DNA of 64,000 nucleotides, from positions 254,176-318,175 of the forward strand of contig JASLQO010000009.1 of NCBI GenBank assembly GCA_030744435.1. Direction: 5' to 3'. The position numbers were made by a program, and so were the translations under genes. Below the pieces are notes generated by a model that saw only the letters and a program-made list of their open reading frames with translations, ran no database searches and had not been told where the DNA came from. The first letter of the stretch is position 1. Each line of letters begins with the position of its first letter. Shown piece by piece: positions 4,977 through 23,414 of this stretch. The DNA is from Pseudomonadales bacterium (GTDB lineage: Bacteria; Pseudomonadota; Gammaproteobacteria; Pseudomonadales; Azotimanducaceae).

Positions 4977-7900
4977 ATCTCGTTCGTGCCGCCCGCACGC
5001 CGCGCTTCACAGATGTGTTCATACGCCGGCCGGTACTGGCGCTGGTGATTTCCATCGCTTTGGTGGTGATTGGCGTGAGGGTGGCCGTGGACATGCCGGT
5101 GTTGCAGTTCCCTCAGATCGAGAGTGCCTCTCTGGTGATAACGACACCGTACATCGGTGCATCTGCAGAGGTCGTGCAGGGCTTTGTCACCGATCCCATC
5201 GAACGTGCCGCGGCCACCATTCCGGGTGTGGACTTCATCGATTCAGTGACCACCGCCGGAATGAGCACGGTGACGGTATATCTGAAACTCAACGAGCGCA
5301 GCACGGATGCGCTCGCTGAATTGTCGACGCGTCTGGGACAGATCCGCTTCGAGCTGCCACGTGGCGCGGAAGATCCATCCGTACTGGTGCAGCGCGCAGA
5401 TCGGCCTCAGGCCGGTTGGTATCTCGGTGTGAAACTCAACGACCATGCCACGCACTCTGAGGTAACCGATTATCTGCGTCGCGAGGTGGTGCCGCAGCTA
5501 TCCTCCATCACCGGTGTGCAGCAGGTGTGGCTCGGTGGCGGGCGCCTGCCGGCGATGCGCATCTGGCTGAATCCCGATCGCATGGCGATGTTCAACGTGA
5601 ATGCCGCGGACGTGGAAACCGCACTCGCCCGCAACAACATCATCGCGACCATCGGCCAGAGTGAAAATGCTAACCAGCAGATCGATCTGATGGTGGATAC
5701 CTCGCTCAAGAGTGCCGAAGAATTCGAGCGTATCGTCATTCGGGAAGCGGATGGCGCGTTGATACGTATAGGTGATGTGGCGCGGGTCGAGCTGGGAGAG
5801 GAGGAGAACAACAGCCTGGGCAGGCTCAATCAGTCCATCACCGTTTGGCTCGGTCTGTACCCGCTGCCGGGTTCAAACGAGATCGAAATCGCCGACGAGA
5901 TGTACGGCGTGCTCGATGACATCAACGCCACCATGCCGTCCGGGCTCGAAATCGAGATCGGTCACGACGTCACCCAATATATGCGCAACGCGCTGCGAGA
6001 GATCTTCATCACGCTGGGTGAGACGGTCCTCCTCGTGGGTCTGGTGGTGGTTGCACTCATGGGATCGTTTCGCACCGCGCTGGTACCTCTGGTGACTATT
6101 CCCGTGTCCCTGCTCGGCGCGGTGGCGGCCATGGCCATCATGGGCTTCTCATTCAACCTGCTCACGGTTCTCGCCATCGTGCTTTCCGTGGGGCTGGTCG
6201 TGGACGATGCCATCGTGATGGTGGAAAACGTGGCTCGCTACATGCGCGAGGGACATTCGCGTTTCGAGGCGGCGCTCGCGAGTTCCAGGCAGCTGGTCTC
6301 GCCCATCATTGCCATGACGCTGACGCTCGCCACCGTTTACGCGCCCATCGGTTTTCTGTCCGGGCTGACCGGCGTACTGTTCAAGGAGTTTGCCTTCACG
6401 CTGGCGGTAGCCGTGCTCATATCGGGATTTCTGGCGCTCACGCTGTCGCCGGTGATGAGTTCGTGGGTGGCGCCGGAGCGCGGACGGGAAGCGAAGATGA
6501 CACAGAGGGTCAATGCGCTGTTTGAGGCCACGCGCTCCGTGTACAGCCGATTGCTCAATGTGGTGCTGGTGTCCAACGGTAAAGTCGTATTCGTGGCGCT
6601 GTTCGCGACGCTGCTCGCCATACCTTTTTTCCTTTTCTCGCAGAAAGAACTCGCCCCAACAGAGGATCAGGGCTCCATCAATGTGGCGTTTACCGCGCCA
6701 CCCGAGGCTTCGATCGGGTACACCGAGCGCTACATGTTCGCTGTGGTCGACGCCATGCTGGAACTTCCGGGGTCCGACGAGATGTGGCAGATGGTGAATC
6801 CCTCGGGGGGCTTTGGCGGTATAGAGTTCGTCGATTTCGATCTCCGCGAGAATTCCGTACACGATCTGTTGCCGCGTGCCTTCGGCACCTTGTCCCAGGT
6901 CACGGGTCTCACCGTGTTCCCGGTGCTGCCATCGGCGCTTCCGAGCGCGGGACGCTATGACATGGAGTTTGTCGTGTTGTCCTCCGATGATGCGCAAACC
7001 ATGCTGGGGCATGCTGATCGACTGCTGGAAGCAGCGAGAGCGAGCGGAGTGTTCATGTTCGTGGACACCGACCTTCGTATCGACCTTCCCCAGGGACGCT
7101 TTCTGCTCGATCGTGAACGGGTGGCGGATCTAGGCATGGATCTGGCCACCGTGTCGCGTCAGCTCGGCACCTATCTTTCCGCCAATTACGTCAACCGCTT
7201 CAATCTGGGCGGAACCGCGTATCGGGTGATCCCGATGGTCGAAGAGGGGGGGCGCTCCGATCCCACGGCGCTTTTGGACCTGCAATTACGCACACCGGCC
7301 GGTGACCTGGTGCCTCTGCGCGCCATTGCCCGGCTGGACCAGAGCGTGGCGCCCCGCCAACTGGCCAAGTTTCAGCAGAAAAACTCGTTCCGCATTCGCG
7401 GTGGCATCATTCCCGGGCGTACCAAGGAGGAAGGGCTGCAGGCCATGGAACGGCTGGCTGGACAGATTCTGCCGCCTGCCTACCAGGTGGATTATGCGGG
7501 TGAGTCGCGTCAGTTGCGCCAGGAAGGCAACACGCTGGTGGGCGTGCTCGGTGTTTCGCTCGTGTTCGTGTTCATGGCGCTGGCGGTGCAGTTCAACAGC
7601 TTCCGCGACCCGCTGGTGGTGCTGCTCGGCTCAGTTCCGCTTGCGCTGTCGGGCGCATTGCTGTTCACCTTTCTCGGACTCACTACCATCAACATCTACT
7701 CGCAGATCGGTTTCATCACACTGGTGGGGCTGATTGCGAAGAACGCGATTCTCATTGTCGAATTCGCGCGCCAGTCGCGCAGTGAAGGGAAGAGCAAACT
7801 GCAAGCCATTCACCAATCCGCGGAGACGAGGCTACGTCCCGTGCTGATGACGGCGGGTGCGACCATCATGGGGCACCTGCCGCTGGTGCTGGTAACCGGT

Positions 7901-8101
7901 CCGGGTGCGGAAGCCCGAAATAGCATCGGTATCGTATTGGTGGCCGGTATGGCGGTAGGAACGCTCTTCACGCTGTTCGTGTTGCCGAGCATCTACTATC
8001 TGCTGGCGAGCGAAACTCAGCAGACTCACGGTGATGTGTCGCAAGATAGCCGCGTGGCGGATGGGGCCCTGGCGCCCGAAACAGGCGGTGCAGTCCGCTG
8101 A
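4973..8101 (+). CDS. RND efflux transporter permease (AcrB/AcrD/AcrF family)
   Basis: 1042-aa ORF with a 12-TM/large-loop RND architecture. GTG start behind a GGAGGAGGG RBS. Typical FIRRPVLA.V N-terminus. Confidence 0.9.
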   Translation: MNLVRAARTPRFTDVFIRRPVLALVISIALVVIGVRVAVDMPVLQFPQIESASLVITTPYIGASAEVVQGFVTDPIERAAATIPGVDFIDSVTTAGMSTVTVYLKLNERSTDALAELSTRLGQIRFELPRGAEDPSVLVQRADRPQAGWYLGVKLNDHATHSEVTDYLRREVVPQLSSITGVQQVWLGGGRLPAMRIWLNPDRMAMFNVNAADVETALARNNIIATIGQSENANQQIDLMVDTSLKSAEEFERIVIREADGALIRIGDVARVELGEEENNSLGRLNQSITVWLGLYPLPGSNEIEIADEMYGVLDDINATMPSGLEIEIGHDVTQYMRNALREIFITLGETVLLVGLVVVALMGSFRTALVPLVTIPVSLLGAVAAMAIMGFSFNLLTVLAIVLSVGLVVDDAIVMVENVARYMREGHSRFEAALASSRQLVSPIIAMTLTLATVYAPIGFLSGLTGVLFKEFAFTLAVAVLISGFLALTLSPVMSSWVAPERGREAKMTQRVNALFEATRSVYSRLLNVVLVSNGKVVFVALFATLLAIPFFLFSQKELAPTEDQGSINVAFTAPPEASIGYTERYMFAVVDAMLELPGSDEMWQMVNPSGGFGGIEFVDFDLRENSVHDLLPRAFGTLSQVTGLTVFPVLPSALPSAGRYDMEFVVLSSDDAQTMLGHADRLLEAARASGVFMFVDTDLRIDLPQGRFLLDRERVADLGMDLATVSRQLGTYLSANYVNRFNLGGTAYRVIPMVEEGGRSDPTALLDLQLRTPAGDLVPLRAIARLDQSVAPRQLAKFQQKNSFRIRGGIIPGRTKEEGLQAMERLAGQILPPAYQVDYAGESRQLRQEGNTLVGVLGVSLVFVFMALAVQFNSFRDPLVVLLGSVPLALSGALLFTFLGLTTINIYSQIGFITLVGLIAKNAILIVEFARQSRSEGKSKLQAIHQSAETRLRPVLMTAGATIMGHLPLVLVTGPGAEARNSIGIVLVAGMAVGTLFTLFVLPSIYYLLASETQQTHGDVSQDSRVADGALAPETGGAVR

Positions 8102-8144
8102 ATGTAGGGCGGGCGTGGTCCCGGCGAAAATAGCCTCTTGAGCC

Positions 8145-8545
8145 TCAGTTGCGCGCCAACTCACTGAGCCGGCTGATGCGCGCGTCGTCCGGCCCCAGGT
8201 GTTCGATCAGGGTACCGAGGACCTCGGTGAAATCGAGTGTTCCTGCCAGTGCCATTTCCTCGAGATCAGCCCAGTGCTTCGTCCGATTGAAGAAGGCTTT
8301 GAATATGGCGAGATCGGTGCATGCGAGGAAGGGCACATTGCAGCCCATGAATGACTCCCACCGGATCCGAGTGGACGCCTTGTCGTGCAGCGGGAACGTA
8401 TTGAGGAATACTCCACCGGTGTTGCGCGCCACCACGAGCGAACCTGGGCGTCGTGTCGAAGACGTTCGCGTTGCTTGACGGTGGGGGTGATCTCATCGGG
8501 TAGTGCCGCGAGTGTGCGCTCCATTTCCGCGACGCCGACAAACAC
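8145..8545 (-). pseudogene. decayed nucleotidyltransferase-like (antitoxin/MNT-type C-terminal) gene
   Basis: Two minus-strand frames (8207..8545 and 8145..8435) must be joined by a frameshift near 8430. This gives ...FVGVAEMERTLAALPDE...VPFLACTDLAIFKAFFNRTKHWADLEEMALAGTLDF..., which resembles the C-terminal part of HTH-nucleotidyltransferase proteins. No intact N-terminal part exists on this strand. Confidence 0.4.
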
Positions 8546-8551
8546 GCGGGC

Positions 8552-8713
8552 ATGAGTCTGAGGGAACTTGCCCGACGAGCGGGAACCTCACACGCAACGC
8601 TCAGCGCGTACGAGAAAGGGGTCAAGACACCCTCGACCTCCACCTTCGTACGCCATGCACGGGCACAAGGCTGTCTGGATGCGGTGGCGGATTTCATGGA
8701 AAACATCGCCTGA
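8552..8713 (+). CDS. short XRE-type helix-turn-helix peptide (possibly a detached gene fragment)
   Basis: My own translation (below the track cutoff): MSLRELARRAGTSHATLSAYEKGVKTPSTSTFVRHARAQGCLDAVADFMENIA, 53 aa. Classic XRE HTH pattern. Lies head-to-head with the decayed gene at 8145..8545. Confidence 0.4.
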   Translation: MSLRELARRAGTSHATLSAYEKGVKTPSTSTFVRHARAQGCLDAVADFMENIA

Positions 8714-8813
8714 TCCGGTTCGGCGCTCCGGCAAGAGGTCTTGGTTTATCTATCTGTTGCTTCCCCTATACCGTGCTCGGCTCGCCGCGGGTGATTTGTA
8801 GGGCCCGCGTTCG

Positions 8814-9631
8814 TTACGAGGTGCCTTTGTTCTTCTCCTTTTCGAGCGCCAGTGCCACACCGCCGAGACGGCGTTGCTCGGGATCTGCATCCTTCGCACG
8901 CACGGAGCCCGCCATCTCCAGCATCATGTAGCTGGAATGCGTTGCCTGAACAGCGTTGCGGTAGCCCATGGCGTCCTGAGCGGCGTTGATGGAGTTCTTC
9001 AGCATGCGCAGGGTGAGGGCGTCGTTTTTTGCGATTCGCTGCGCCTGGGCCATGGCAGATTCCATCAGCTCTTCGCGCGGGACCACCTCACACACCAGCC
9101 CGAGTTCGAGCGCTTCCGCGGCGTGGATGAAGCGGTTCTCGTACAGGATCTGCTTCGCCTTGCGCACTCCGAGATCCCAGGGTGCGGTAAAGAGCTGGAG
9201 ATGCGCGGGTAGAAACTTTGCATCGTCCGCGGCGATGATCAGGTCCATGCATGACGCGATCAGGTAGCCACCGAAAATGCAGTACCCCTGCACCGCGGCG
9301 ATGGTGGGTTTTTGACGTCGCGCCAACGAAGGCTCGAATCGATCATCAGGTGCCATGAGCGATTGATCCGGCCGAGCGTGCCGGGACCGAAGGGCTCGGC
9401 CTCCTGATCCGCGATTTCTTCAGGGGTGCCGAGATCGTGGCCGGCGGAGAAGTGCTCACTGGCGCCGCACAGCACGACGACACGCACGGAGGTGTCGTTG
9501 TCGGCCTCGGCAAAGGCATCGTTCATTTCCTCCAGCAGTATGCGTGATTGCGCGTTGCGGTAGCGCGGCCGGTTGAGGCGAATGATGGCGATGCGGTCGT
9601 GTTTTTCGGTTTCGATCTGCTGGTAGCTCAT
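8814..9631 (-). pseudogene. enoyl-CoA hydratase/isomerase family gene with a frameshift
   Basis: N-terminal half in the frame of ORF 9260..9745, from ATG 9631 (MSYQQIETEKHDRIAIIRLNRP...FSAGHDLG). C-terminal half in ORF 8814..9356 (...RQKPTIAAVQGYCIFGGYLIASCMDLIIAADDAKF). The frames switch around 9350-9370. The span of 818 nt is not a multiple of 3. Confidence 0.7.
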
Positions 9632-9645
9632 GCGAGGTGCCCTTC

Positions 9646-9930
9646 TTATCTGTCTCTTGAATGAAAGCTTATCGTGAATCCGGTGCACTGCCACATATGC
9701 CACGTCAAGACGAGGTAGAAAGCGAGTGCGGTGGCGAAGTGCCACTCGGAGATGTTTTCCAGCCAGTCATCGTTTTCGACCAGGTTGGCGAGCGTGGCCA
9801 GAACAAGGTCCTCCAGCAGCATGAAGAGCCCGACATCGAATAGGGCCGTCGCGAGGTCGGCGAAGACGCCGTGAAAAGCGCTGATGCCGAATAAAAAGAG
9901 TGTTATCAGCCCGAGGTTCCGTGGCAACAT
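9646..9930 (-). CDS. small hypothetical membrane protein
   Basis: ORF 9646..10053 trimmed to ATG 9930 (MLPRNLGLITLFLFGISAF...) so that it does not overlap the upstream B12-domain gene. Two or three hydrophobic helices. No recognisable family. Confidence 0.4.
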   Translation of the reverse strand: MLPRNLGLITLFLFGISAFHGVFADLATALFDVGLFMLLEDLVLATLANLVENDDWLENISEWHFATALAFYLVLTWHMWQCTGFTISFHSRDR

Positions 9931-9970
9931 GAAGTCACCGCCACTGGCTTGCGGTGGTTGGAAACCGTTG

Positions 9971-10381
9971 TCACTTCGAATCGCACTTAGCCAGATCACG
10001 AATGGCATCCACAATCTCGTTTTGAGATGCCCTCGCATCGAACACGCCGTCAACTCCCTTCTCGATCATCTCCTCGGCGTCTTTGCTGGTTATGATCGAA
10101 CCTCCGATCACCACCCGGCAGTCGAGTCCTCTACTTCTGATGTCAGCGATGAGCCGAGGCACGAGCGTCAGATACTCCCAGGAGTGGCAGCTGATTCCGA
10201 CTACGTGTGCGCCCACTTTCTCGGCGTGCGCTGCAACCTGAGCGGGCGTATTGAAGACACCCATATAGCTCACGAACATCTGAGATTCCAACAGCATGCG
10301 TTGCACGGCTATCGCGCCATTTTCGTGCTGGTCTATACCCATGGTCGCGATCACGATTCTCGGTACACCCTTCATGTTCAA
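9971..10381 (-). CDS. cobalamin-binding small subunit of a divergent acyl-CoA mutase
   Basis: 136 aa. Rossmann-like B12-binding domain with the DxHxxG motif as GIDQHENG and a later GG motif (VIGGSII). The start overlaps the stop of the upstream large subunit by 4 nt. Confidence 0.85.
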   Translation of the reverse strand: MNMKGVPRIVIATMGIDQHENGAIAVQRMLLESQMFVSYMGVFNTPAQVAAHAEKVGAHVVGISCHSWEYLTLVPRLIADIRSRGLDCRVVIGGSIITSKDAEEMIEKGVDGVFDARASQNEIVDAIRDLAKCDSK

Positions 10382-11964
10382 AGCGGCAACTCGATCGTCG
10401 GCTCGATCATTGCATATGGATCATATGGCCGGTTCGTGACGAGCCGCATGATACCCGCCATCTCTCCGACCGTGACGTCGGCTTCGAAGCATTGCATGAC
10501 GACCGGTACGAGATTCCCACCATCCCTTACTGCTGTGGCGAGTCCCCGCATTGAATCTTTCGCGGCAGTTTGATCCCGGGTCCGTTTCAGGTTTCGAACC
10601 CGCTCCGTCTGGGTTTTGCATGCTTCGATCTTGGTTTCGGCGATATCCTTGAGAAGTTGGTCTTCTTCCTCAGGAACCACGTGGCAGTTCACACCGACAA
10701 TCGAGAGTTCTTCCTTCTGAACGGCGCGCTGACCTTCTTCCATCGCGCTGTGAAAAATATCTCGGAAGTAACCGCGTTCCTGAATCGCTTCGATATCCCC
10801 TGCGTTTTCTATCTCTTCGATTCGAGTCAGTATCCTGGTTTCGATTTCGTCAGTGAGCCATTCGACGAAGTGCGATCCGCCCAGGGGGTCGACCACTCGT
10901 GTCACCCCTGTCTCGGTTTCGATGATCTGCTGGGTACGAAGCCCTACGAGATGTCCTTCTTGGGAAGGCGTGCGATAGGCCTCGTCAAAGGTGGAGATTT
11001 CGATGGCATGAGCACCTCCGAGCACCAGCGATAACGCCTGCAGCGCACCGCGCGAAATATTGTTGACCGGTTGCTGGGCGGTCAGGGACAGACCCGACGT
11101 ATGACTGGTGAGTACGACCGTCTGGGAGCGCGGGTCCCGTGCGCCGAACTCGTCGCGCATGGTGCGTGCGAAAATGCGTCGGCTCGCCCGTAGCTTCGCC
11201 ACCTCCTCGAAGAAATCCATGCCGCAGTTGACGAGGATTGCGATTCTTGGAGCAAAAGCATCGATCTCCACACCGCGCTCGAGCAGTTTTCGTGTGAGGT
11301 GCCTTATCTCGACAAACCCCAGGGCCATTTCTTCCACCGCATCTAGACCGGACTCGCTGAAGAAGTAGGTATCTTCGACGTATGCGTGGAACTTCGGCAT
11401 GTGGCGCGCGCAGTATTCCATGCAATCCAGGGAGAGCCTGACACGCAATTCGACCGGCAGATGGTTGGCATAGGTGCAATCCTCGCCATAGAGCGGCATC
11501 TGTAGCACCGACCCCCGGACGGCGTCGGGCGGATAACCGTAGTGCTTTGCGGCGCACAGCAGGCCTGCAAGCGACATCAGGGACGGTACAGAGCTCGAGA
11601 CGGCCACCTTGTCCAGCGGAATATCTCTGAACAGATCGATGTAGTCCTGTTTGCAGCACAGCGAAACCCCCTGCGTGCCAACCGATGACTCGAGCAGTGG
11701 GTGGTCGGCGTCGAACATGCTCATGGTCGGGCCATCGCCGATGATATCCACGCCATCCTGACCCAGCTCCAACAGATACTTGATCTGCTGGTTGGATCGT
11801 TTGCCGTCTCCCTCACCCGACAACTCGCGCTGTTGCCAGCCCCCGGTCCTCGGTTGTGCGAATCGGCCGCGTGTGAAAGGAAAAACGCCGGGGCTTTCCG
11901 CGCCCTCTTTGCTATAGAAGGGTTGCAGCGAAACTCCGGATCGTGTTCTTTTTCTATCGTCCAT
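10378..11964 (-). CDS. divergent methylmalonyl-CoA-mutase-family catalytic (large) subunit, substrate unknown
   Basis: ORF trimmed to ATG 11964 behind a GAGGAGGG RBS. The C-terminal two thirds are MCM-family-like (FFEEVAKLRASRRIFA, TSGLSLTAQQPVNNISRGALQAL, VVDPLGGSHFVEWLTDEIE). The N-terminal substrate-binding motifs are replaced (see findings). Confidence 0.85.
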   Translation of the reverse strand: MDDRKRTRSGVSLQPFYSKEGAESPGVFPFTRGRFAQPRTGGWQQRELSGEGDGKRSNQQIKYLLELGQDGVDIIGDGPTMSMFDADHPLLESSVGTQGVSLCCKQDYIDLFRDIPLDKVAVSSSVPSLMSLAGLLCAAKHYGYPPDAVRGSVLQMPLYGEDCTYANHLPVELRVRLSLDCMEYCARHMPKFHAYVEDTYFFSESGLDAVEEMALGFVEIRHLTRKLLERGVEIDAFAPRIAILVNCGMDFFEEVAKLRASRRIFARTMRDEFGARDPRSQTVVLTSHTSGLSLTAQQPVNNISRGALQALSLVLGGAHAIEISTFDEAYRTPSQEGHLVGLRTQQIIETETGVTRVVDPLGGSHFVEWLTDEIETRILTRIEEIENAGDIEAIQERGYFRDIFHSAMEEGQRAVQKEELSIVGVNCHVVPEEEDQLLKDIAETKIEACKTQTERVRNLKRTRDQTAAKDSMRGLATAVRDGGNLVPVVMQCFEADVTVGEMAGIMRLVTNRPYDPYAMIEPTIELPL

Positions 11965-12003
11965 GGACCCTCCTCGTACCGGGTATGCCGTGTGGCTACG
12001 CAC

Positions 12004-12076
12004 TGTGATTCAGCATAACGAGCGAACGCGCGCTGAGAAACCGGAAGCTGATTCAGGGAAGCACTGAGCGAACGAG
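12004..12076. repeat. imperfect direct repeat in the 5' region of the divergent mutase gene
   Basis: TGATTCAG...GAGCGAACG occurs twice. The TGATTCAG copies are at 12006-12013 and 12049-12056, and the GAGCGAACG copies at 12020-12028 and 12066-12074. Both lie in the 149-nt gap between the 12114 stop and the 11964 start. Confidence 0.35.
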
Positions 12077-12113
12077 AATTGGTCGGAGCTTCCCCGCCAC
12101 TGGTGCGGCGCGC

Positions 12114-12530
12114 TCAAATCTGACGCACTTTCATCCGGCAGCGCTCAGCGCCTTCCGGAATTGTTTCACTGATCGTCAACTCTGCGCCGCAGCGTCTCAA
12201 CATGATGCGATCCATGTCCATAGCGGTGTCGCATGCGTAGCGATGCTCGCTTGCCGTGAATCCATACGGGCAATATGGAAGCTCGAGGGTGAACTCGTTT
12301 CCATCGATTTCAGAAAACCGAAACGGGAAGCCAAACTGCTGGCCAGAGTCGATGAGCTGCTGCTTCGTTTCGGCAATGGAATCCGTCTTGCGTACGCCCC
12401 CGAGCCATGGCAGAAAAGCCATGCACCAGCTCACCCCCCGCGCCAGAGGCTCTCCGATCAGCGGGATGTGCGACAGGAGCACATGAATCCCGCCCAGTAT
12501 GCGCATGAACGCGTCGATGTATCGCTGCAT
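12114..12530 (-). CDS. hypothetical Cys-containing protein (weak resemblance to the ATC-hydrolase-like domain)
   Basis: ORF 12114..12692 trimmed to ATG 12530 (MQRYIDAFMRILGG...). The C-terminal pattern LELPYCPYGF...ACDTAMDMDRIMLRRCGAELTISETIPEGAERCRMKV recalls PF14196-type proteins. This is from memory only. Confidence 0.4.
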   Translation of the reverse strand: MQRYIDAFMRILGGIHVLLSHIPLIGEPLARGVSWCMAFLPWLGGVRKTDSIAETKQQLIDSGQQFGFPFRFSEIDGNEFTLELPYCPYGFTASEHRYACDTAMDMDRIMLRRCGAELTISETIPEGAERCRMKVRQI

Positions 12531-12564
12531 TGCACTGTTCTCGGGTAGTGCCTTCAGAGGCTCC

Positions 12565-13098
12565 CTAGATGAAGACCTCCACCAGGTTTTCGATAAAAGC
12601 GGCCCCAATCCACGTGATCGGCACGATGACGGGGTACAAACCGAAACGCGCCACGATACTGAGGTTGAACGGCCACTCCGCCACCGTAGCAACTTCCCTT
12701 CGATAGGTCAGCAGGGGCCCCAGTATTTCAGCATTTACCAGCGGATCTCCACCCCTCGTTTCCTTGATGCTGTCCTGTATACGGGCGAGTACCGCCTGCT
12801 TTGCCTGCCGGAGCGCCAGGTGAATCGGCCAGACGGGAGCGAGGAAGAGGAACACCAGCGGTACAGCGGTTGCAACGAGTCCGGGGATGGTCGTCCGGGG
12901 GTCGGTGTCCGAAACCAGCCACATGATGGCAAACAGCGCCTGTGCTCCGATGACCATCAGCGTAGAATTCAGCGTCATGTCTCCAAACGGCATGAGGTTT
13001 CGATTGTCGAGCAGATCGATGGTCAGCTGATTCGAAAGTCTGCGGAACAGTCGTGCATTGTCACCAGTGCGCGCATCGCACAGGTCATGAACACTCAT
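12565..13098 (-). CDS. hypothetical integral membrane protein
   Basis: ORF 12565..13401 trimmed to ATG 13098 (MSVHDLCDARTGDN...). Several hydrophobic helices (LMVIGAQALFAIMWLV, GLVATAVPLVFLFLAPVW, FGLYPVIVPITWIGAAFI). May be the 3' part of one frameshifted gene together with 13145..13444. Confidence 0.45.
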   Translation of the reverse strand: MSVHDLCDARTGDNARLFRRLSNQLTIDLLDNRNLMPFGDMTLNSTLMVIGAQALFAIMWLVSDTDPRTTIPGLVATAVPLVFLFLAPVWPIHLALRQAKQAVLARIQDSIKETRGGDPLVNAEILGPLLTYRREVATVAEWPFNLSIVARFGLYPVIVPITWIGAAFIENLVEVFI

Positions 13099-13144
13099 GC
13101 GAATGCGGGCACTATGGCCATGGCAAACGTATTCACGCTGTTGG

Positions 13145-13444
13145 TTAGTGCATCCAGCATGCGTTGAAATCCTCCTGCCAGAAACCAGCTCTGCGACAGC
13201 CACAGTCCGATACCAAGAGCGGTATTTCCAACACCCACATGATGGAAAAGAGGTATGAGAGGGAATGAAGCGTCCTGTGTCCACGAAACACCAGGGGGGA
13301 CAGCATAGCCAAAACCAGAACCAGCGACAGTGGGCCTGCGAGCCAGAAAGCAAACGTAAATACCGGCATCGGGAACAGGGGATAGGACTCACGAATTGCA
13401 AGGACGGTGGAATTGTAGAGGAAGAAAGCCGTTAAGAACTTCAT
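13145..13444 (-). CDS. hypothetical small membrane protein (or 5' part of a split gene)
   Basis: ORF 13145..13513 trimmed to ATG 13444 (MKFLTAFFLYNSTVLAI...). Three hydrophobic segments. The stop lies 46 nt before the next ORF, and the neighbouring frame is open across the junction. Confidence 0.4.
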   Translation of the reverse strand: MKFLTAFFLYNSTVLAIRESYPLFPMPVFTFAFWLAGPLSLVLVLAMLSPLVFRGHRTLHSLSYLFSIMWVLEIPLLVSDCGCRRAGFWQEDFNACWMH

Positions 13445-13598
13445 CGGCGGCGTGGAGAGCGAGAGCGGCGACCAGCATGATCCAACCAAAAACCGCGAAG
13501 GCGCATCTGTCACATTTTGACCACGTTCGAAATGTAGAAAAATCCATTGAAATCAATATGATTGGCTTCAACTGCGCCGTACTCATGCAATATCCGGG

Positions 13599-14501
13599 CT
13601 AGAGGACCTCACCCAGTTTGCGCGCGAGTTCGGCATAGACTTCGCGGATGGGTCGTTGCAGGAGATCGCTTCGAGCCTCGTCGAACAGCTCGGCCACGCG
13701 CCGACTCATGAGGCTTTCCACGTGATAGCGCAGCCGCGCACGGCGGTGCAGATCGGCATCGTTGTGGTCATCACGCCAAAGGCTGTGTGCATTGATCGCT
13801 TCATCCAGCTCGGCGATAGAGTCGTCGGTAATTGACGCCGAGAGCACCGGTGGGCGCCATTCACCGGGTTCGACGTGACGATAGTCCACGACTGAGCGAA
13901 TGTCGTGCAACATCTGTTCGGCTCCCGCACAGTCGCACTTATTGACAACGTAGATGTCGGCTGTCTCGAGAATACCGGCCTTCATCGCCTGCACCGCATC
14001 TCCGGATTCGGGCACGAGTACTAATACCACGGTATCCACGAGGTTGCGGATCTCGTAGTCCGCCTGACCGACCCCGACGGTTTCGAGAATCACCTCGTCG
14101 AATCCGTGCTTATCGAGAACCATCAGCATTTCACAGATGTTGTCGGCCAGACCGTCATGGGCATTGCGACTGGGAATCGAGCGGATATACAGCCCAGGGT
14201 GTTCGGCCACGGTGTCCATACGAATCCGGTCACCGAGAATGGAGCCACGTGAGATGGGGCTGGTGGGGTCTATGGCTAGTACCGCCATTCGCGCCCGCGC
14301 TTCGAGGCGAGTGGCCGCCAGGCGCGCGATGAGCGTGCTCTTTCCTGCGCCCGGCGGCCCGGTTATACCGATTCGCGTTGCCGGGTCATGCGGTGAACTG
14401 GCCACGGCGGCCAGACAGTCTGCGACACTGGCGCGTGAGGCCCTCGTGAGGGCCCGGCTCAGGGCGCGTCGGTTGGAGAGGCGGGGTGGCGACTCCATCA
14501 C
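13599..14501 (-). CDS. meaB: methylmalonyl-CoA-mutase-associated G-protein chaperone (MeaB/ArgK family)
   Basis: P-loop GITGPPGAGKSTLI and NKxD motif VVNKCD. 4-nt overlap with the upstream B12-subunit gene. Confidence 0.9.
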   Translation of the reverse strand: MMESPPRLSNRRALSRALTRASRASVADCLAAVASSPHDPATRIGITGPPGAGKSTLIARLAATRLEARARMAVLAIDPTSPISRGSILGDRIRMDTVAEHPGLYIRSIPSRNAHDGLADNICEMLMVLDKHGFDEVILETVGVGQADYEIRNLVDTVVLVLVPESGDAVQAMKAGILETADIYVVNKCDCAGAEQMLHDIRSVVDYRHVEPGEWRPPVLSASITDDSIAELDEAINAHSLWRDDHNDADLHRRARLRYHVESLMSRRVAELFDEARSDLLQRPIREVYAELARKLGEVL

Positions 14502-14893
14502 GACAACGCCGCTTCCAGCGCGCTGAGCGTATCGTTGAGGCTCATCTCGCTGGTGAATACACCGAGTGCACCCATCTCCAGCAGAGCCTGGGTATCCTGC
14601 GGTGCAATGGTGCCGCCGATGAACACCCCTATATTCGCCGCGCCGAGCTTGGCGAGTTCATCCAGCGTTTGGGCCAGAAGTGTGTGGTGGGAACCGGACA
14701 GGATACTCAAGCCCACCGCATCGACATCCTCGTCGGCCGCTACACGCGCGATGTAGTCAGGGCTCTTTCGCAGGCCCGTGTAGATGACGTCCGCACCGGC
14801 ATCCCGGAGAGCCAGCGTGATGATCTTGGCACCGACGTCGTGACCGTCGAGACCAGGCTTGGCGATCAGAATACGTTTTCCTTTGAGACTCAT
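14498..14893 (-). CDS. cobalamin-binding small subunit of acyl-CoA mutase
   Basis: 131 aa. DxHxxG as GLDGHDVG, SxL-type LSILSGSH and GG motif FIGGTI. Confidence 0.9.
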   Translation of the reverse strand: MSLKGKRILIAKPGLDGHDVGAKIITLALRDAGADVIYTGLRKSPDYIARVAADEDVDAVGLSILSGSHHTLLAQTLDELAKLGAANIGVFIGGTIAPQDTQALLEMGALGVFTSEMSLNDTLSALEAALS

Positions 14894-14924
14894 GAATGGT
14901 CCTCTCCAGTGGCGGGAAGTAGCT

Positions 14925-16559
14925 TCATGCCCTCAGAGGAGGCTCCTGAAACTCTCCCCAGTGCCTCTTGAGCTCTCCCACCATCTCACCGACGGTGGCA
15001 TAGGCGTGGCAACACTCGACCAGAAGGGGCATTAGGTTGACATCATCATGGATCGCGGCGCTGGCGAGCGCTTTGAGCGCTTTCTCCGTGCGCACATTGT
15101 CACGCCGGTCTCGAATCGCTTCGTATTTGGCGATGATGCGCCTGCGATTATCGGGATCCTGACGAAACACCTCACCGAAACCCGCGTGCTCTTCGTCTCG
15201 CTGGTAACGGTTCACACCCACCACTATACGTTGACCCGCGTCCACCTGCCGCTTGCGCTCCCGTGCCCGTTCGACGATGCGCATCTGAATGTAGCCCTCC
15301 TCGATGGCTTTCACGACCCCTCCGTAGTCGTCGATCTCCTGCATTACCCGCAGAATCTTATCCTCCATGCGATCGGTTAGATACTCCACGTAGTAGCTGC
15401 CGCCGAGCGGATCGACAGTGTCGGCGATGCCGCTTTCGTGGGAGATGATCTGTTGGGTGCGCAGAGCCAGTTCGGCACTCTGTTCGGTCGGAATCTGAAA
15501 GGCCTCGTCGTACGCGGAGGTAAAAATGGATTGCGCGCCGCCCAGTACCGCGGCCATGGTTTCCGTGCCCACACGAACCACGTTGTTGAGTGGTTGTGCG
15601 GCCGTTAGGGAAGAACCACCACACACGACACCGAAGCGAAACAGAAGGCTTCTGGGATCCTTTGCATCGTAGCGTTCCTGCAGGAGCCGCGCCCATATGC
15701 GCCTGGCCGCCCGAAACTTGGCCACTTCCTCGAAGAGGTCCATATGTACGTAGAAAAAGAAGCTCAGGCGCCGGGCGAAACTGTCGATATCGACACCGCG
15801 AGCCAGTAGTTCATTCACGTAGGCAAGTCCGTTGGCGAGCGTGTAGCCGATCTCCTCCGCCGCTGTGCAGCCGGCATCACGCACATGCGCACCAGCGATA
15901 CTGATGGGGTTGAAACGTGGGCTTTCCTGATTGGCGTACACGATCGAGTCGGCGATTAGGCGCATGGAGGGTTTCACCGGGAAGATCCAGGTGCCGCGCG
16001 CTACGTACTCCTTGAGGATGTCGTTTTGGATGGTGCCGGACAACGACGCTCTCGGCACTCCCGCGTTGTCCGCGGCGGCCAGGTACATGGCGAAGATGAT
16101 GGCCGCGGTGCTATTGATGGTGAACGACGTGGAGATGGCGCCGAGGTCGATGCCATCCAACAACACTTCCATTTCCGCGAGGTTCGACAGCGATACACCA
16201 ACCTTGCCCACCTCGGCGCTCGCCACGATGTCCACCGGGTCGTAGCCGCATTGAGTCGGCAGGTCCAGCGCCACGGACAGACCGGTCTGGCCCTGATCCA
16301 ACAGAAACCGGTAACGCTCGTTGGATTCTTCGGCAGAACCGAACCCCGAATACTGGCGCATGGTCCAGCGGCGACCGCGAAATCCGTTGGCGAAGATGCC
16401 ACGCGTGTAGGGCATCTGACCGGGCAGTCCGGGATCAGGATTTCCCAGCATCTCCGGCGTTACCAGCACCGGCACTTCTATACCCGAAGGCGTGAACGCG
16501 GGTGCGGGCTCAGGTTTGGTTTCGGTCGTCACTTCGAGCTCCTCTGGTCTTGCTTGCAA
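14925..16559 (-). CDS. acyl-CoA mutase large (catalytic) subunit, MCM-like
   Basis: 544 aa. YTRG...WTMRQYSGFGSAEESNERYRFLLDQGQTGLSVALDLPT, GTIQNDILKEYVARGTWIFP, QPLNNVVRVGTETMAAVLGG, VDPLGGSYYVEYLT. Tyr and Arg are retained at the MCM Tyr89/Arg207-type positions. Confidence 0.9.
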   Translation of the reverse strand: MQARPEELEVTTETKPEPAPAFTPSGIEVPVLVTPEMLGNPDPGLPGQMPYTRGIFANGFRGRRWTMRQYSGFGSAEESNERYRFLLDQGQTGLSVALDLPTQCGYDPVDIVASAEVGKVGVSLSNLAEMEVLLDGIDLGAISTSFTINSTAAIIFAMYLAAADNAGVPRASLSGTIQNDILKEYVARGTWIFPVKPSMRLIADSIVYANQESPRFNPISIAGAHVRDAGCTAAEEIGYTLANGLAYVNELLARGVDIDSFARRLSFFFYVHMDLFEEVAKFRAARRIWARLLQERYDAKDPRSLLFRFGVVCGGSSLTAAQPLNNVVRVGTETMAAVLGGAQSIFTSAYDEAFQIPTEQSAELALRTQQIISHESGIADTVDPLGGSYYVEYLTDRMEDKILRVMQEIDDYGGVVKAIEEGYIQMRIVERARERKRQVDAGQRIVVGVNRYQRDEEHAGFGEVFRQDPDNRRRIIAKYEAIRDRRDNVRTEKALKALASAAIHDDVNLMPLLVECCHAYATVGEMVGELKRHWGEFQEPPLRA

Positions 16560-17313
16560 GTGCCCCGTCCGCGGCCTCCCAGTGATCCGCGTGAGTCCAG
16601 GTCGTCACCAGGCCGCTGGTTTCCTCGGCTTGCAGGGCGCTGTGACTCTGACCCGCGCGCCCTGCATTCGCAAGTGCCTTGAAAGCGCGCAGAACCTGGG
16701 GTTTTTGCCCCAGCAATGGCTGCAGGAAGGTATCGAGTACTTCTCCGAGTTCGGAGGCCCCGGCCACCATGTCGACGAGACCCGCGGCGTGCGCATCATG
16801 TGCACTGAGCAGCTCGCTGCGGCAGAGTACAGCCAGGGCACGTTGGGGGCCGAGGAGGCTCACCAGATCGGTGCCGCCGCCCCATGCGGTGGAGATGTTG
16901 AGGTGCCCCTGGATGAAACCGATATGCGCCGTGGCAGCCGCTACACGAAAATCACACGCCAGCGCCAGCTCGGCGCCACCTCCCCTGGCATCCCCATTCA
17001 GCAGTGCAACGACCGGTACCGGAAACTCGCGAATGGCCTGCAGGGTTGCCATACCCTGTGCGGACATCGCCCTGGCTTCGTCTTCGCTGCGTACCTGGGC
17101 AAGATCGACGAGATCGCCACCAGCGGCGAAACTCCTTTCGCCTGCGCCGGTGAGAACGGCGCACTTGAGGGTATCGTCTTCGCGGTGCAACTCGAACAGT
17201 TCGCGCAATGCATCCAATGTCCCCCGGCTTAATGCATTGTGCTTTTCGGGGCGGTTCAACGTGACTCGCACGATTGCGCCGGCCCGTTCGGTGAGAATCT
17301 CGTCTGTCATCAA
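16510..17313 (-). CDS. enoyl-CoA hydratase/isomerase family protein
   Basis: IVRVTLNRPEKHNAL...SFAAGGDL crotonase signature. Its 3' end overlaps the mutase start by 50 nt. Confidence 0.85.
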   Translation of the reverse strand: MMTDEILTERAGAIVRVTLNRPEKHNALSRGTLDALRELFELHREDDTLKCAVLTGAGERSFAAGGDLVDLAQVRSEDEARAMSAQGMATLQAIREFPVPVVALLNGDARGGGAELALACDFRVAAATAHIGFIQGHLNISTAWGGGTDLVSLLGPQRALAVLCRSELLSAHDAHAAGLVDMVAGASELGEVLDTFLQPLLGQKPQVLRAFKALANAGRAGQSHSALQAEETSGLVTTWTHADHWEAADGALASKTRGARSDDRNQT

Positions 17314-17575
17314 TACCTCGACGAAGTGATGGAAGTAGATGTGGCTGGGATCCTAAGTATTGCATTGACGCGTACCCACCGGGTAACCGCAATCCACTCC
17401 GCGGGCTTCGGCACGCCATGCGCCTGATCTCTTGCGTGCGGGTTGTTGTCCGGAGGAAACCGCAACATCACCGCCGCCGATGATTTCGCTTGGAAAAACA
17501 CTGCGGTAGTGTGTGTTGGCAGTGGCGTGAATCGCGCCGTCGGAGATGGATTGTTGCTACTGATTGGGAGGTCAT

Positions 17576-18394
17576 ATGCCTGAATACGAATTTCTGCTCT
17601 ACGATGTGTCGGAGCGAATCTGCACGATCACGTTCAACCGCGCCGAGAAGCGCAACGCCCTCAACACGAAGCTCTTGGAGGAGCTGGACGACGCCCTGGA
17701 TGTGGCCGAAGCGGACGATGACGTTCGTGTCGTCCTGTTCAAGGGCGCGGGCACCGCTTTCAGCGCCGGATACGACCTGCGTGACAACCCCTACACTGTC
17801 CCGCCCGAGGGGCAGGATCATTGGCGGTTGAATGATGCAGCACCGGCGCTCAGGAAAATCAGTAACCGTTACCTTCGTATCTGGTACTACCCCAAACCCA
17901 CAATTGCTCAGGTGCAGGGGCCCGCGATTGCGACAGGTTGCTATTTTCAGATGCTCTGTGATATCGCCTTCGCAGCAGACACGGCGACCTTCGGCCATCA
18001 GGCGCAACGTGTAGGCGGTGTGACCAGTCTACCGTTGTGGGTGTGGATGTTGGGCCTGCGGCAGGCCAAGTACTTGCTGTTGACCGGAAGATTGATCACC
18101 GCCAGGGAAGCGCAAAAAATCGGCCTGGTCACGCGGGTCTTCCCTGCGGATCAACTGGAAGGCGAGGTGAGTCGACTATGTGAAGACCTGGCGGCGGCTA
18201 ACCCAGTCGGAACGACCTGGTTGAAGGACGCGATCAATGCTGACTACGACATGATGGGTTTCCGGGCTTCGTTTCCGATGCATCATTCGATGAACGCTGC
18301 GATGCGGGTGCTGGAAAAGCAACCAGGGGAGTTGAACCTGGCTGACATCGTGTTTGGCGGTGATCGGCAGGATGTTCCCGAAGGTGAGGCGTGA
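17576..18394 (+). CDS. enoyl-CoA hydratase/isomerase family protein
   Basis: ATG 17576 behind a GGGAGG RBS. ICTITFNRAEKRNAL...AFSAGYDL crotonase signature. Confidence 0.85.
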   Translation: MPEYEFLLYDVSERICTITFNRAEKRNALNTKLLEELDDALDVAEADDDVRVVLFKGAGTAFSAGYDLRDNPYTVPPEGQDHWRLNDAAPALRKISNRYLRIWYYPKPTIAQVQGPAIATGCYFQMLCDIAFAADTATFGHQAQRVGGVTSLPLWVWMLGLRQAKYLLLTGRLITAREAQKIGLVTRVFPADQLEGEVSRLCEDLAAANPVGTTWLKDAINADYDMMGFRASFPMHHSMNAAMRVLEKQPGELNLADIVFGGDRQDVPEGEA

Positions 18395-18422
18395 GGTGAT
18401 GGCATTCACGCCGACCGGGGAA

Positions 18423-18476
18423 TATGAGACAAATCTTGATTGTGTCTCATAAACGAGACAAAATCGCGGTCTGTTT
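18423..18476. promoter_or_regulatory. operator-like inverted repeats upstream of the hydrolase/TetR-like pair
   Basis: Perfect 9-bp arms TATGAGACA (18423-18431) and TGTCTCATA (18443-18451) with an 11-nt spacer. A second imperfect pair follows: AAACGAGAC (18451-18459) and GTCTGTTT (18469-18476). The stems are AT-rich, unlike an intrinsic terminator. Confidence 0.4.
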
Positions 18477-18499
18477 CATATGGTCAGGATCTTACCGGC

Positions 18500-19222
18500 G
18501 TGAGCAGTCGTGCAATTCCCGGGCGGAATCGATATTGGGTGATGGCCGCGGGGCCGTGTGCCGCACTCGTGCCCGCGGCCCCGTTTCTCTATCAGGTGCC
18601 TAGGGGGGATGGCCACCCGGTGTTGGTGATGTCTGGCTTTGGCGGAGATGACAGCTCGACCGCGGTGCTGAGAGGATTCCTGAGTTGCGTCGGCTATCGA
18701 AGCCGCGCCTGGAAATTAGGCACCAATTGCGGGACTGATATGCCGGATCTGCTGCTCAACCTCGCCAGCCGTCTCGATGCGATATTCACGGCGGCAGGTG
18801 AGGTCAAGGTGAGTCTCGTGGGTTGGAGCCTTGGCGGTGTGTATGCGCGCGTGCTGGCGCACCACTACCGGAAGAAGCTACGGCAGGTCATTACCCTGGG
18901 CAGTCCCTTCGCCAGCAACTCGCGGACCACCCCCTCTTGCGTGCGCCTGCTGGCCGGAGAACGTCTGCCCGGGATTCCGAGCACGGCCGTGTTCAGTAAG
19001 ACGGACGTCGTGGTTCCCTGGCAGCTTGCCACACAACAGCCCACCGAAATCGCGGAAAACGTCGAAGTCTATGCCAGCCATGTGGGCCTCGGGTTCAATC
19101 CCGCCGTTTTATACGCTGCGGCCGATCGCCTTGCTAATCGTGAGGGACAGTGGCGTTCGATGCAGCGTACGGGCTGGAAACGTCTGATCTACGGACCGGC
19201 ACGACTGTCGACGGAGCACTAG
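18500..19222 (+). CDS. alpha/beta-fold hydrolase (lipase/esterase-like)
   Basis: GDGHPVLVMSGFGGDD and nucleophile elbow GWSLGG. The start is uncertain: the track start 18440 (TTG) lies inside the palindromes, so GTG 18500 is preferred. ATG 18542 is also possible. Confidence 0.7.
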   Translation: MSSRAIPGRNRYWVMAAGPCAALVPAAPFLYQVPRGDGHPVLVMSGFGGDDSSTAVLRGFLSCVGYRSRAWKLGTNCGTDMPDLLLNLASRLDAIFTAAGEVKVSLVGWSLGGVYARVLAHHYRKKLRQVITLGSPFASNSRTTPSCVRLLAGERLPGIPSTAVFSKTDVVVPWQLATQQPTEIAENVEVYASHVGLGFNPAVLYAAADRLANREGQWRSMQRTGWKRLIYGPARLSTEH

Positions 19223-19225
19223 AAC

Positions 19226-19834
19226 GTGTCGCCAAGAACCTGGCATACCTGTCAGCCAATGGATCTACAGAGTCTCGCACGACAGTGGTTTCTGAGTTCG
19301 CGGAGGATAGAACTACAGAAGCTCGCGGTGGAGCTCGGCATTTCGCGAGCGACCGCCTACCGGTGGGGTGGCAGTGCCGAACAACTCGTGGGACGCGTGC
19401 TCGCGTCACTGGTCGATGACACCTTCCGTCAGCTCGCGCACCGCAGCAGGGCAACCGGTGGCGAGCGTGTGCTCGACGTGCTGGAGCGTGGGATGCGTTA
19501 TGCGCACAAATTCCGGCCGTTACAGCAATTCCTGGCCAGAGACGCGCAATTGGGGCTGAGGATAGTTGCTTCCAAGCACAGTCCGGTTCAGGAACGCACG
19601 ATCGCCAACCTTCAGTGGTTGCTGGAGGAGGAGATCGACGCCGGCCATATGTCACTGCCGGTCACACCCGATGTCATGGCATACGCGCTCACGCGTATCG
19701 TCGAGTCTTTTTTGTACTCAGACCTCATTATCGGTGCTGCAGCGGAGCTTGAGAACGCATCGAGCATTGTGAAGCTCATGTTGTGCCAGGATCCGCAGCG
19801 CGAGCCTGTCCAAACAGAAACACGAATCCCGTAG
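19226..19834 (+). CDS. TetR/QsdR-like transcriptional regulator
   Basis: HTH LQKLAVELGISRATAYRWGGS followed by an all-helical C-terminal domain. GTG 19226 or ATG 19259 as start. Confidence 0.65.
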   Translation: MSPRTWHTCQPMDLQSLARQWFLSSRRIELQKLAVELGISRATAYRWGGSAEQLVGRVLASLVDDTFRQLAHRSRATGGERVLDVLERGMRYAHKFRPLQQFLARDAQLGLRIVASKHSPVQERTIANLQWLLEEEIDAGHMSLPVTPDVMAYALTRIVESFLYSDLIIGAAAELENASSIVKLMLCQDPQREPVQTETRIP

Positions 19835-19860
19835 CGGGATAGCTGATAGGAGATTCTCTC

Positions 19861-20313
19861 ATGTTGAGAATTGGCGATATGGCACCCGAGTTCGAACTCG
19901 CCGACCAGTCCGGCAGCACCGTAACGCTGAACCAGCTAGTTGCCGATGGCGATGTCGTTCTCTATTTCTATCCGGCTGACTTCTCGCCGGTATGCACCGC
20001 TGAAGCGTGTGCGTTTCGCGACAGCTACGAAGACGTCTCGAGTGTGGGGGTGCGGGTCGTGGGTGTGAGTCCGCAAGGCGTCGGTAGCCATCAACGATTC
20101 TCAAACCGTTTTTCCATCCCGTTTCCGCTCTTGAGCGATCCGCAGAAAATCACCATCAAGGCCTATGGTGTAGATGGTCCTTTGGGTTTCGGGGTCAGGC
20201 GAGCCACCTTTCTGATCGACGCTAAGAAAACCGTTCGAAACCGGGTCGTCTCGGATCTGTTCATTGGCTCTCACACGGAACTGCTCAACAAAACCGTGCG
20301 CGAACGCGTATAG
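19861..20313 (+). CDS. bcp: thiol peroxidase (peroxiredoxin Bcp type)
   Basis: APEFELADQSG...VVLYFYPADFSPVCTAEACAFRD with the peroxidatic Cys motif. Confidence 0.9.
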   Translation: MLRIGDMAPEFELADQSGSTVTLNQLVADGDVVLYFYPADFSPVCTAEACAFRDSYEDVSSVGVRVVGVSPQGVGSHQRFSNRFSIPFPLLSDPQKITIKAYGVDGPLGFGVRRATFLIDAKKTVRNRVVSDLFIGSHTELLNKTVRERV

Positions 20314-20333
20314 CGGCGTTGCTGCCGGGAAAG

Positions 20334-22796: not shown

Positions 22797-22895
22797 AACG
22801 ACATGCGCGTGACAACGATCCCGGATAGGGTAAACGCGACCGAACCCATGCGTATATCCTGCCGCGACTCACTTCGGCGCATTGGCCGGCCCGTG

Positions 22896-23414
22896 CTAGC
22901 CAGGTTTGACGATGGCGAGAAACCAGAGAAGGGGAATCGTGATTCTCACCACCGGGCTGACGAATCTGAAGAACTTGAGCTGATCTCCGCGCATCTTCTT
23001 GTAGCCTTCCGGGTCTTCTTCCTTACGCGCTTCTGCCCGCGCGGAATAGTAGTGGGAGAACCAGATGTCGTATGCCTCCAGAGGGACGTAGATGATCACA
23101 ATGATCGACAGCTTGAGCATGATCCAGGTGGACTCGAGAGTCCAGCCGCTCGCCAGGAACATCAGCGGTCCCGTGATGATGAGTACGGGCCAGGCGATGT
23201 GTTCCAGGATGATCAGCTTGTCGACCTGATCCCAGGACCACCACATTCGACGCTCCAGTTCTGCATTCGAGGGTTCGCCTTGATAGTCGTTGATCGCGCG
23301 ACGGACATACACCGTGTAGGCCGGTGGGACCGCCAGTCCCCAAAGGAACGCAAAGAAGACGTGGATGAACTTGATGTAGAGAAAATTGCTAGCGACGAAA
23401 GCAGTGAGATCCAT
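22896..23414 (-). CDS. hypothetical integral membrane protein
   Basis: ORF trimmed to ATG 23414 (MDLTAFVASNFLYIKFIHVFFAFLWG...). Four hydrophobic helices. Family not recognised. Confidence 0.6.
   Translation of the reverse strand: MDLTAFVASNFLYIKFIHVFFAFLWGLAVPPAYTVYVRRAINDYQGEPSNAELERRMWWSWDQVDKLIILEHIAWPVLIITGPLMFLASGWTLESTWIMLKLSIIVIIYVPLEAYDIWFSHYYSARAEARKEEDPEGYKKMRGDQLKFFRFVSPVVRITIPLLWFLAIVKPG

Follow-up and report, generated by a model that had tools for sequence, protein, structure and literature searches.

Two acyl-CoA mutase cassettes of separate, widespread subfamilies probably stand side by side by chance in one clonal marine Pseudomonadales lineage

The window analyzed here is a 64,000-nt stretch of a Pseudomonadales genome (assembly GCA_030744435.1, contig JASLQO010000009.1, positions 254,176 to 318,175, forward strand), and our subject is a minus-strand gene array in which the original prediction, made from the letters alone, saw two split acyl-CoA mutases and a single MeaB chaperone in one double-mutase module. 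Based on our findings, we propose that the array probably consists of two independent adenosylcobalamin mutase cassettes, each from a widespread, uncharacterised subfamily of its own, which lie head to tail in one clonal marine lineage. Cassette 1 comprises a crotonase-fold protein (crot1), a mutase large subunit (large1), a cobalamin-binding small subunit (B12_1) and MeaB; cassette 2 is built around a second pair (large2 and B12_2) with a frameshifted crotonase (crot2). Both large subunits have a full-length MM_CoA_mutase domain and both small subunits carry the base-off/His-on motif DxHxxG, and adenosylcobalamin-dependent acyl-CoA mutase activity is predicted for both pairs.

Large1 and large2 share 33% identity, against 78-83% between either of them and members of its own family; a recent duplication of one mutase is ruled out by that low mutual identity. 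Family 1 recurs as a cassette in the order [IclR]-crotonase-large-small-[family III CoA-transferase]-MeaB in 53 metagenome loci and on a Sulfitobacter dubius plasmid, and the family-2 large/small pair stands alone in 28-30 loci. Family 2 was found beside family 1 in none of the 53 family-1 loci, 23 of which have at least 6 kb of downstream sequence, and family 1 beside family 2 in none of the 28-30 family-2 loci. Since other genomes keep the cassettes apart, their juxtaposition in the window looks like chance rather than a two-mutase pathway. The double-mutase module as a functional unit thus finds no support in comparative genomics, the two families being apart in ~80 other loci. The synteny itself is unique to a clone of ~100% identity, one of the outcomes that the original prediction had named as speaking against it; the decay of the second module named along with it was not found.

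The other signs of a joint module can be assigned to one cassette or the other. MeaB is a built-in component of the family-1 cassette, and family-1 loci have it at this same place in the gene order. The copy in the window is 44-65% identical to family-1-linked MeaBs and 37-45% identical to family-2-linked ones, and a MeaB lies near the mutase in only 3 of ~30 family-2 loci, ~27 of the 30 being without one. It is correct that one MeaB accompanies two mutases in the 64 kb, but this is nothing special, because that MeaB belongs to cassette 1. Likewise, each of the flanking hydratases that had been taken as a mark of the module is the usual crotonase partner of its own cassette, and crot1 lacks the second catalytic glutamate.

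For the active sites, signatures were taken from 120 listed large1 homologs and 119 large2 homologs, in P. shermanii numbering (Table 1). E. coli ScpA, human MUT, HcmA (4r3u), Xaut_5021 and Ruegeria MeaA served as references, together with 54 relatives of the methylmalonyl-CoA mutase (MCM) and isobutyryl-CoA mutase (ICM) type. Neither mutase fits any of the four class signatures that could be tested, namely those of MCM, ICM, 2-hydroxyisobutyryl-CoA mutase (HCM) and ethylmalonyl-CoA mutase (ECM). The suspicion that these are not textbook enzymes thus holds for large1, with its Y243A exchange and pocket changes, and for large2 as well. Database annotation calls both subfamilies no more than "methylmalonyl-CoA mutase family" or "acyl-CoA mutase large subunit family".

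Table 1. Residues at eight active-site positions in known mutase classes and in the two families of the window
Class	Signature
MCM and ECM	Y89 S114 A116 F117 Q197 R207 Y243 H244
HCM	I89 S114 D116 F117 Q197 Q207 Y243 H244
ICM-type	F89 S114 A116 F117 Q197 Q207 Y243 H244
Family 1	Y89 S114 A116 L117 Q197 R207 A243 H244
Family 2	L89 D114 I116 G117 Q197 Y207 Y243 F244

Large1 has its best PDB match in HcmA (4r3u, E = 5e-148), and its homologs form more than 100 clusters at 69-83% identity. The carboxylate clamp, Tyr89 and Arg207, is kept in large1 and in all 120 listed homologs. The AGAHVRDAG motif, with Ala in the place of Tyr243, is present in large1 as had been noticed, and the Ala is fixed in 120 of the 120 listed homologs; position 117 is Leu or Met. 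The pocket of large1 is lined by Ala243, Leu117, Gly328, Val330, Phe364 and Ser366, with His244 kept. Phe117, Tyr243 and His244 are all retained by ScpA, MUT, MeaA and the 54 MCM/ICM-type relatives. Of 83 columns with an invariance of 97% or more among the known types, the family-1 consensus departs at 13, including S241A, E247D, H328G, Q330V, H364F and N366C/S, and the same departures are seen in HMMER alignments. The small subunits keep DxHxxG in 42 of 42 cases, as DGHDVG in B12_1.

The context of family 1 is equally consistent. In most family-1 loci the gene immediately upstream of the mutase is an ortholog of crot1; these orthologs make up a cluster of 20 loci. At the positions that we take to be the catalytic glutamates of crotonases (Glu144 and Glu164 in rat numbering), 21 of 23 members of the crot1 family have the first Glu, and 19 of 23 have Gln in place of the second; crot1 itself has the first Glu and Gln at the second position, and so may not be a hydratase at all. 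A TAXI-TRAP transporter is sometimes found downstream, and clustering of the neighbouring open reading frames (ORFs) revealed nothing else conserved. The CoA-transferase is missing in at least 9 family-1 loci, as it is in the window. A complete family-1 cassette exists in a cultured strain, S. dubius DSM 109990, on plasmid pDSM109990_c (L184, record 167101-175556), in the order IclR, crotonase, mutase, B12 subunit, CoA-transferase, GTPase, TAXI-TRAP, and its mutase is 70% identical to large1. Of additional note, one family-1 locus, L126, has a B12 subunit, two tandem divergent large subunits and one MeaB directly upstream of its family-1 cassette (4310-11970). The extra large subunits carry the motif SIVGQHMQQAG (VGQH), with Gln at the Tyr243 position. 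Judged from these sequences, L126 is a genuine multi-mutase array with further, uncharacterised candidate subfamilies of mutases.

Large2 is more divergent. Its best match among solved structures is again HcmA 4r3u (E = 3e-82), and its 119 homologs, at 56-78% identity, give it too more than 100 homolog clusters of its own. Large2 and its homologs have Leu89 and Tyr207 in place of the carboxylate clamp and Phe in place of His244, and large2 is also altered at positions 328, 330, 364 and 366. The family-2 signature is present in 112-119 of the 119 homologs, except at position 197, where 60 have Gln and 55 have His. At 29 of the 83 near-universal columns the family-2 consensus departs from the known types. 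The small-subunit motif is DQHENG in B12_2 and DQHE[NV]G in 23 of 23 family-2 small subunits.

The hosts of family 2 include Alpha-, Beta- and Deltaproteobacteria, Rokubacteria, Acidobacteria and Desulfotruncus. Among 28 loci, a short-chain dehydrogenase/reductase (SDR) recurs as a neighbour in 15, an AMP-forming CoA ligase in 11 and a crotonase of ~294 aa in 10, often with a TetR regulator. In Desulfotruncus the cluster continues with genes for an acyl-CoA dehydrogenase (ACAD), a crotonase and a 3-hydroxyacyl-CoA dehydrogenase. The closest relative of large2, with 78% identity, comes from a Pseudomonadales metagenome-assembled genome (MAG) and has a carboxyltransferase and a thiolase-like gene as neighbours instead. 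Naming the neighbours (ligase, SDR, crotonases and CoA-transferases) by NCBIfam gave generic names below the equivalog cut-offs only.

The arrangement in the window is genuine. A 7.1-kb Tara contig covers crot1 to large2 with 2 mismatches to the window, and eight further contigs (L175-L182, from Tara, JGI and three NCBI MAGs) contain the whole arrangement, split crotonase included, at 99.99-100% identity. These eight align to window positions 2565-23098 over 11-20.5 kb, the longest contig being 363 kb. The idea that the juxtaposition is an assembly chimera has already been refuted, since L174 and the eight other contigs, which stem from different samples and were built with different assemblers, run across the junction from MeaB to large2 with 99.97-100% identity; the same order in nine other assemblies leaves practically nothing of a misassembly. 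All copies of the array are one clone, and for this reason they provide no independent evolutionary evidence. The marine host population is in itself strikingly clonal across the Tara, JGI and NCBI assemblies.

Taking the signatures and neighbourhoods together, we suggest plausible functions for each cassette. Cassette 1 corresponds to the self-contained family-1 cassette without its CoA-transferase. A substituted succinate would be activated via CoA transfer; large1/B12_1 would interconvert a bulky, C-substituted succinyl-CoA and its substituted malonyl-CoA counterpart, in either direction; and crot1 would process the mutase product, most simply by decarboxylation. This substrate is suggested because the clamp and His244 are kept in large1 and Tyr243, Phe117, His328, Gln330 and His364 are exchanged for smaller or apolar residues. 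Family-1 loci also frequently have a family III CoA-transferase and a dicarboxylate-type transporter as partners. According to mutagenesis of the P. shermanii MCM, Tyr243 presumably fills the space of a second C2 substituent or of a 2S-methyl group. The Ruegeria ECM, for a substrate with an extra carbon at the migration terminus, keeps Tyr243, which is consistent with a different substitution pattern in family 1. In the scheme for cassette 2, a free acid would be activated by a ligase, large2/B12_2 would rearrange a non-carboxylated, probably branched, acyl-CoA, and the product would pass to a hydratase and a dehydrogenase in a β-oxidation-type sequence. A non-carboxylated substrate is suggested because Tyr89, Arg207 and His244 are lost. 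MeaB may also serve mutase 2 in trans, although nothing requires it to do so.

Among known systems, the "sleeping beauty" operon of E. coli, scpA-argK-scpB-scpC, matches the family-1 cassette in its four functional classes, namely a mutase, a G-protein chaperone, a crotonase-fold enzyme and a CoA-transferase, and the scheme suggested for cassette 1 repeats its logic. ScpA shares the carboxylate clamp with large1; unlike large1, it is a fused single chain with Tyr243, Phe117, His328 and Gln330 intact. ScpB and crot1 are 24% identical, and the column of ScpB His66 is Gly in the crot1 family, which rules out crot1 as a ScpB ortholog. ScpC is annotated in its record as a propionyl-CoA:succinate CoA transferase, whereas the family-1 transferase belongs to family III (PF02515), and we take these to be different transferase families. 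The HCM system, HcmAB with MeaH and a 2-hydroxyisobutyric acid (2-HIBA)-CoA ligase (4r3u; Xaut_5018-5021), has the same split large/small architecture as both of our pairs, and in its setting, where a ligase and a dehydrogenase accompany the mutase, it is similar to the family-2 loci. However, the HCM residues Ile90, Asp117 and Gln208 (HcmA numbering; in HcmA and Xaut_5021) correspond to Tyr, Ala and Arg in large1 and to Leu, Ile and Tyr in large2, and His244, kept in HCM, is Phe in family 2. The ICM pattern of Phe89 and Gln207, present in 32 comparison sequences, is likewise replaced by Tyr/Arg in large1 and by Leu/Tyr in large2. ECM (MeaA/Ecm) binds a carboxylate on a substrate larger than methylmalonyl-CoA; Ruegeria MeaA differs from both enzymes here, which are split, in being a fused chain, and it keeps Phe117, Tyr243 and His244 at 35% identity to large1.

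Two further systems were compared by their descriptions only. In auxin degradation by Aromatoleum aromaticum, IaaGH is a phenylsuccinyl-CoA/benzylmalonyl-CoA mutase that works with the family III CoA-transferase IaaL (PMC8360864). A mutase for bulky substituted succinyl-/malonyl-CoA combined with a phenylsuccinyl-CoA transferase follows the same logic that we suggest for family 1, but the iaa cluster has many further genes that are absent here. In the biosynthesis of matlystatin and actinonin, MatB/MatQ and ActD represent a split mutase of the HCM subclass with a proposed long-chain alkylmalonyl-CoA (hexylmalonyl-CoA) substrate (PMC5719088), a reaction that the scheme for cassette 1 resembles as well. 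The MatB/ActD clusters are biosynthetic and include genes for crotonyl-CoA carboxylase/reductase (CCR) and an epimerase, neither of which is found here. A homolog from Streptomyces N50 (54% identity, Ser243, Leu117) was considered as a MatB/ActD-type enzyme and rejected: no CCR lies nearby, and with ligases, an amidohydrolase, a luciferase-like oxygenase, a CoA-transferase and SDRs around it, the cluster looks catabolic in its gene content.

The cassettes are 1.6 kb apart, and this spacer includes a truncated gene as well as a non-coding stretch of 500 bp. The region had been described as membrane ORFs from 12565 to 13444; the part from 12565 to 13098 (ORF-177, 177 aa) is indeed coding-like, but the remainder is not. 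The sole homolog of ORF-177, P0242 (291 aa), aligns at 59% identity over its residues 123-290 (the C-terminal 168 aa) only, and ORF-177 looks like a truncated membrane-protein gene. From 13099 to 13598, codon periodicity is absent and the GC content at third codon positions (GC3) is 0.49, against 0.66-0.74 in the genes. The spacer also includes ORF-138, whose homologs of ~140 aa form 48 representative clusters at E ≤ 1e-3, with a weak resemblance to PF14196 (ATC_hydrolase) below the cutoff; it is linked to neither mutase family in the other loci examined. An Rfam search of 8000-23500 gave no match at E ≤ 1, so that no riboswitch or other RNA was found between the cassettes. A promoter and terminator scan of 8500-18000 found nothing above shuffled expectation, and none on the minus strand between the cassettes. 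A look for inverted repeats of operator type between the genes turned up a single weak pair of 12 nt, at 12056-12094.

How, then, should the adjacency be understood? The ten genes could form one operon and one pathway, in which the two mutases, served by the same MeaB, convert related acyl-CoA intermediates either one after the other or in parallel. All genes are co-directional, no terminator-like site separates the cassettes, the only MeaB in 64 kb lies among them, the arrangement is fixed in a population sampled at many places, and other arrays with one MeaB for several mutases exist, L126 being an example. Nevertheless, we consider this distinctly unlikely, because the families never occur together in the ~80 other loci, each cassette is self-sufficient elsewhere, the 1.6 kb between them here includes a truncated gene as well as 500 bp that do not code, and their active sites suggest chemically unrelated substrates, of which only one has a carboxylate. 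A bolder proposal, that family 2 is a new reaction class of B12 acyl-CoA mutase without His244, Tyr89 and Arg207 and has, in this lineage, been recruited into a one-operon pathway of two rearrangements with a single MeaB, is in our judgment very unlikely. The loss of those three residues could also suggest that large2 and large1 are related like MutA and MutB of Propionibacterium, large2 being the catalytically inactive, β-like partner. This is scarcely credible: large2 comes with a B12 subunit of its own, in which DxHxxG is intact, and in 28-30 other loci its family is found as a pair by itself, with no family 1 present.

Cassette 2 might instead be a relic that is being lost, its mutase pair intact in sequence and outside any working pathway. 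The core genes of cassette 2 are intact, but it lacks the SDR and CoA ligase usual near family 2, every assembly has the frameshift in its crotonase, and its neighbour ORF-177 is a truncated remnant beside 500 bp of non-coding DNA. The frameshift in crot2, described earlier for 8814-9631, proved to be a single-base shift in the A5 run at 9309-9313 (window 9300-9319, minus strand GTCAAAAACCC), and the same shift occurs in every independent assembly. The addition of one A restores a complete PRK08290-type crotonase of 272 aa. Crot2 may be a fixed pseudogene; alternatively, slippage at C-AAA-AAC could restore its frame. Even so, we regard the relic explanation as rather unlikely. Large2 keeps 146 of the 148 near-invariant columns of its own family, B12_2 keeps DxHxxG, and both have a normal GC3 of 0.66; judged by these residues, the second module is not a decayed copy. 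Moreover, crot3 and the many ECH, ACAD and ligase genes in the window could substitute for the missing functions; crot3, in a divergent unit with a TetR gene 7 kb away, is the best paralog of crot2 in the window, at 31-45% identity. A signal of horizontal transfer is unclear, because the GC3 of 0.66 in large2 and B12_2 overlaps the 0.67-0.68 of crot1 and the CoA-transferase. Two independent cassettes brought together by chance is, therefore, the explanation that we prefer.

Several points nevertheless weigh against that explanation. The roles given here to Tyr243, His328, Gln330 and His364 are presumed from the P. shermanii MCM literature. Selection on the junction and on large2 is unmeasurable, the nine other copies being 99.97-100% identical. 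As no promoter or terminator match was found between the cassettes, there is room for co-transcription. Finally, family 1 or family 2 might coincide with one of the classes of IaaGH, MatB/ActD, RcmA and pivalyl-CoA mutase (PCM).

The gene calls come from ORF listing and translation together with Pfam and NCBIfam scans of the window, and every gene and the minus-strand order listed in the original prediction were confirmed (Table 2). The 4-nt overlaps reported there exist for large2/B12_2 and B12_1/MeaB; large1 and B12_1, however, are separated by a 31-nt gap. The probable start of large1 is at 16532, giving 535 aa according to independent gene calls. The MeaB translation has GPPGAGKST (P-loop) and NKCD (NKxD) motifs, and an exact-sequence look-up of this MeaB found no record. 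For ORF-94, no family match was found, and none of 180 related loci has a homolog.

Table 2. Features of the array and its surroundings (window coordinates)
Feature	Position	Strand	Support
crot1, crotonase-fold protein, first gene of cassette 1	16510..17313	-	ECH_1 138 bits
large1, family-1 acyl-CoA mutase large subunit	14925..16559	-	PF01642 651 bits, profile positions 2-512
B12_1, cobalamin-binding small subunit of cassette 1	14498..14893	-	PF02310 74 bits, TIGR00640 131 bits
MeaB G-protein chaperone, last gene of cassette 1	13599..14501	-	PF03308 232 bits
Stretch of 500 bp with no sign of coding, between MeaB and ORF-177	13099..13598	.	GC3 0.49
ORF-177, probable C-terminal remnant of a 291-aa membrane protein	12565..13098	-	one homolog
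ORF-138, small Cys-containing protein	12114..12530	-	small conserved family, 48 representative clusters
large2, family-2 acyl-CoA mutase-like large subunit	10378..11964	-	PF01642 417 bits, profile positions 1-510
B12_2, cobalamin-binding small subunit of cassette 2	9971..10381	-	PF02310 54 bits, TIGR00640 80 bits
ORF-94, small hydrophobic lineage-specific ORF	9646..9930	-	gene call in independent assemblies, GC3 0.74
crot2, PRK08290-type crotonase with one frameshift	8814..9631	-	ECH_1 halves 9260-9631 and 8814-9356, in different frames
Divergent unit: crot3 (PRK08290-type crotonase), alpha/beta-hydrolase-like protein, TetR	17564..19834	+	
Fused double family III CoA-transferase, 820 aa	20334..22796	-	PF02515 in two stretches

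The surroundings contain other genes of acyl-CoA metabolism. The 820-aa double CoA-transferase is 25-34% identical to the single-domain transferases of family-1 cassettes. A second acyl-CoA metabolism cluster, at 47221-59779, has three acyl-CoA dehydrogenases, two crotonases and an Amidohydro_2 protein, as well as a zinc alcohol dehydrogenase, a tannase/feruloyl-esterase-family protein and a thiolase-like protein. Within it, at 53798-54585, an AMP-binding (acyl-CoA ligase) gene occurs in fragments only, a 249-aa ORF representing part of the domain; the gene is possibly disrupted, as two tblastn pieces seem, by their coordinates, to be in different frames.

Few specificities of acyl-CoA mutases have been defined biochemically, among them methylmalonyl-, isobutyryl-, ethylmalonyl-, 2-hydroxyisobutyryl- and pivalyl-CoA, and a few proposed alkyl- or aryl-substituted ones. 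The value of this locus probably lies not in the juxtaposition or in a two-mutase pathway, but in two enzyme subfamilies, both large and conserved, with signatures unlike those of any class compared. Family 1 combines a kept carboxylate clamp and an opened hydrophobic pocket with a compact cassette, which is also present in a cultured host, S. dubius DSM 109990. In family 2 even His244 is replaced, though MCM, ICM- and HCM-type sequences keep it. Since the host population recurs in marine assemblies from Tara, JGI and NCBI, the locus may be relevant to the cobalamin demand of the ocean, and both subfamilies are targets in the search for new carbon-skeleton rearrangements.

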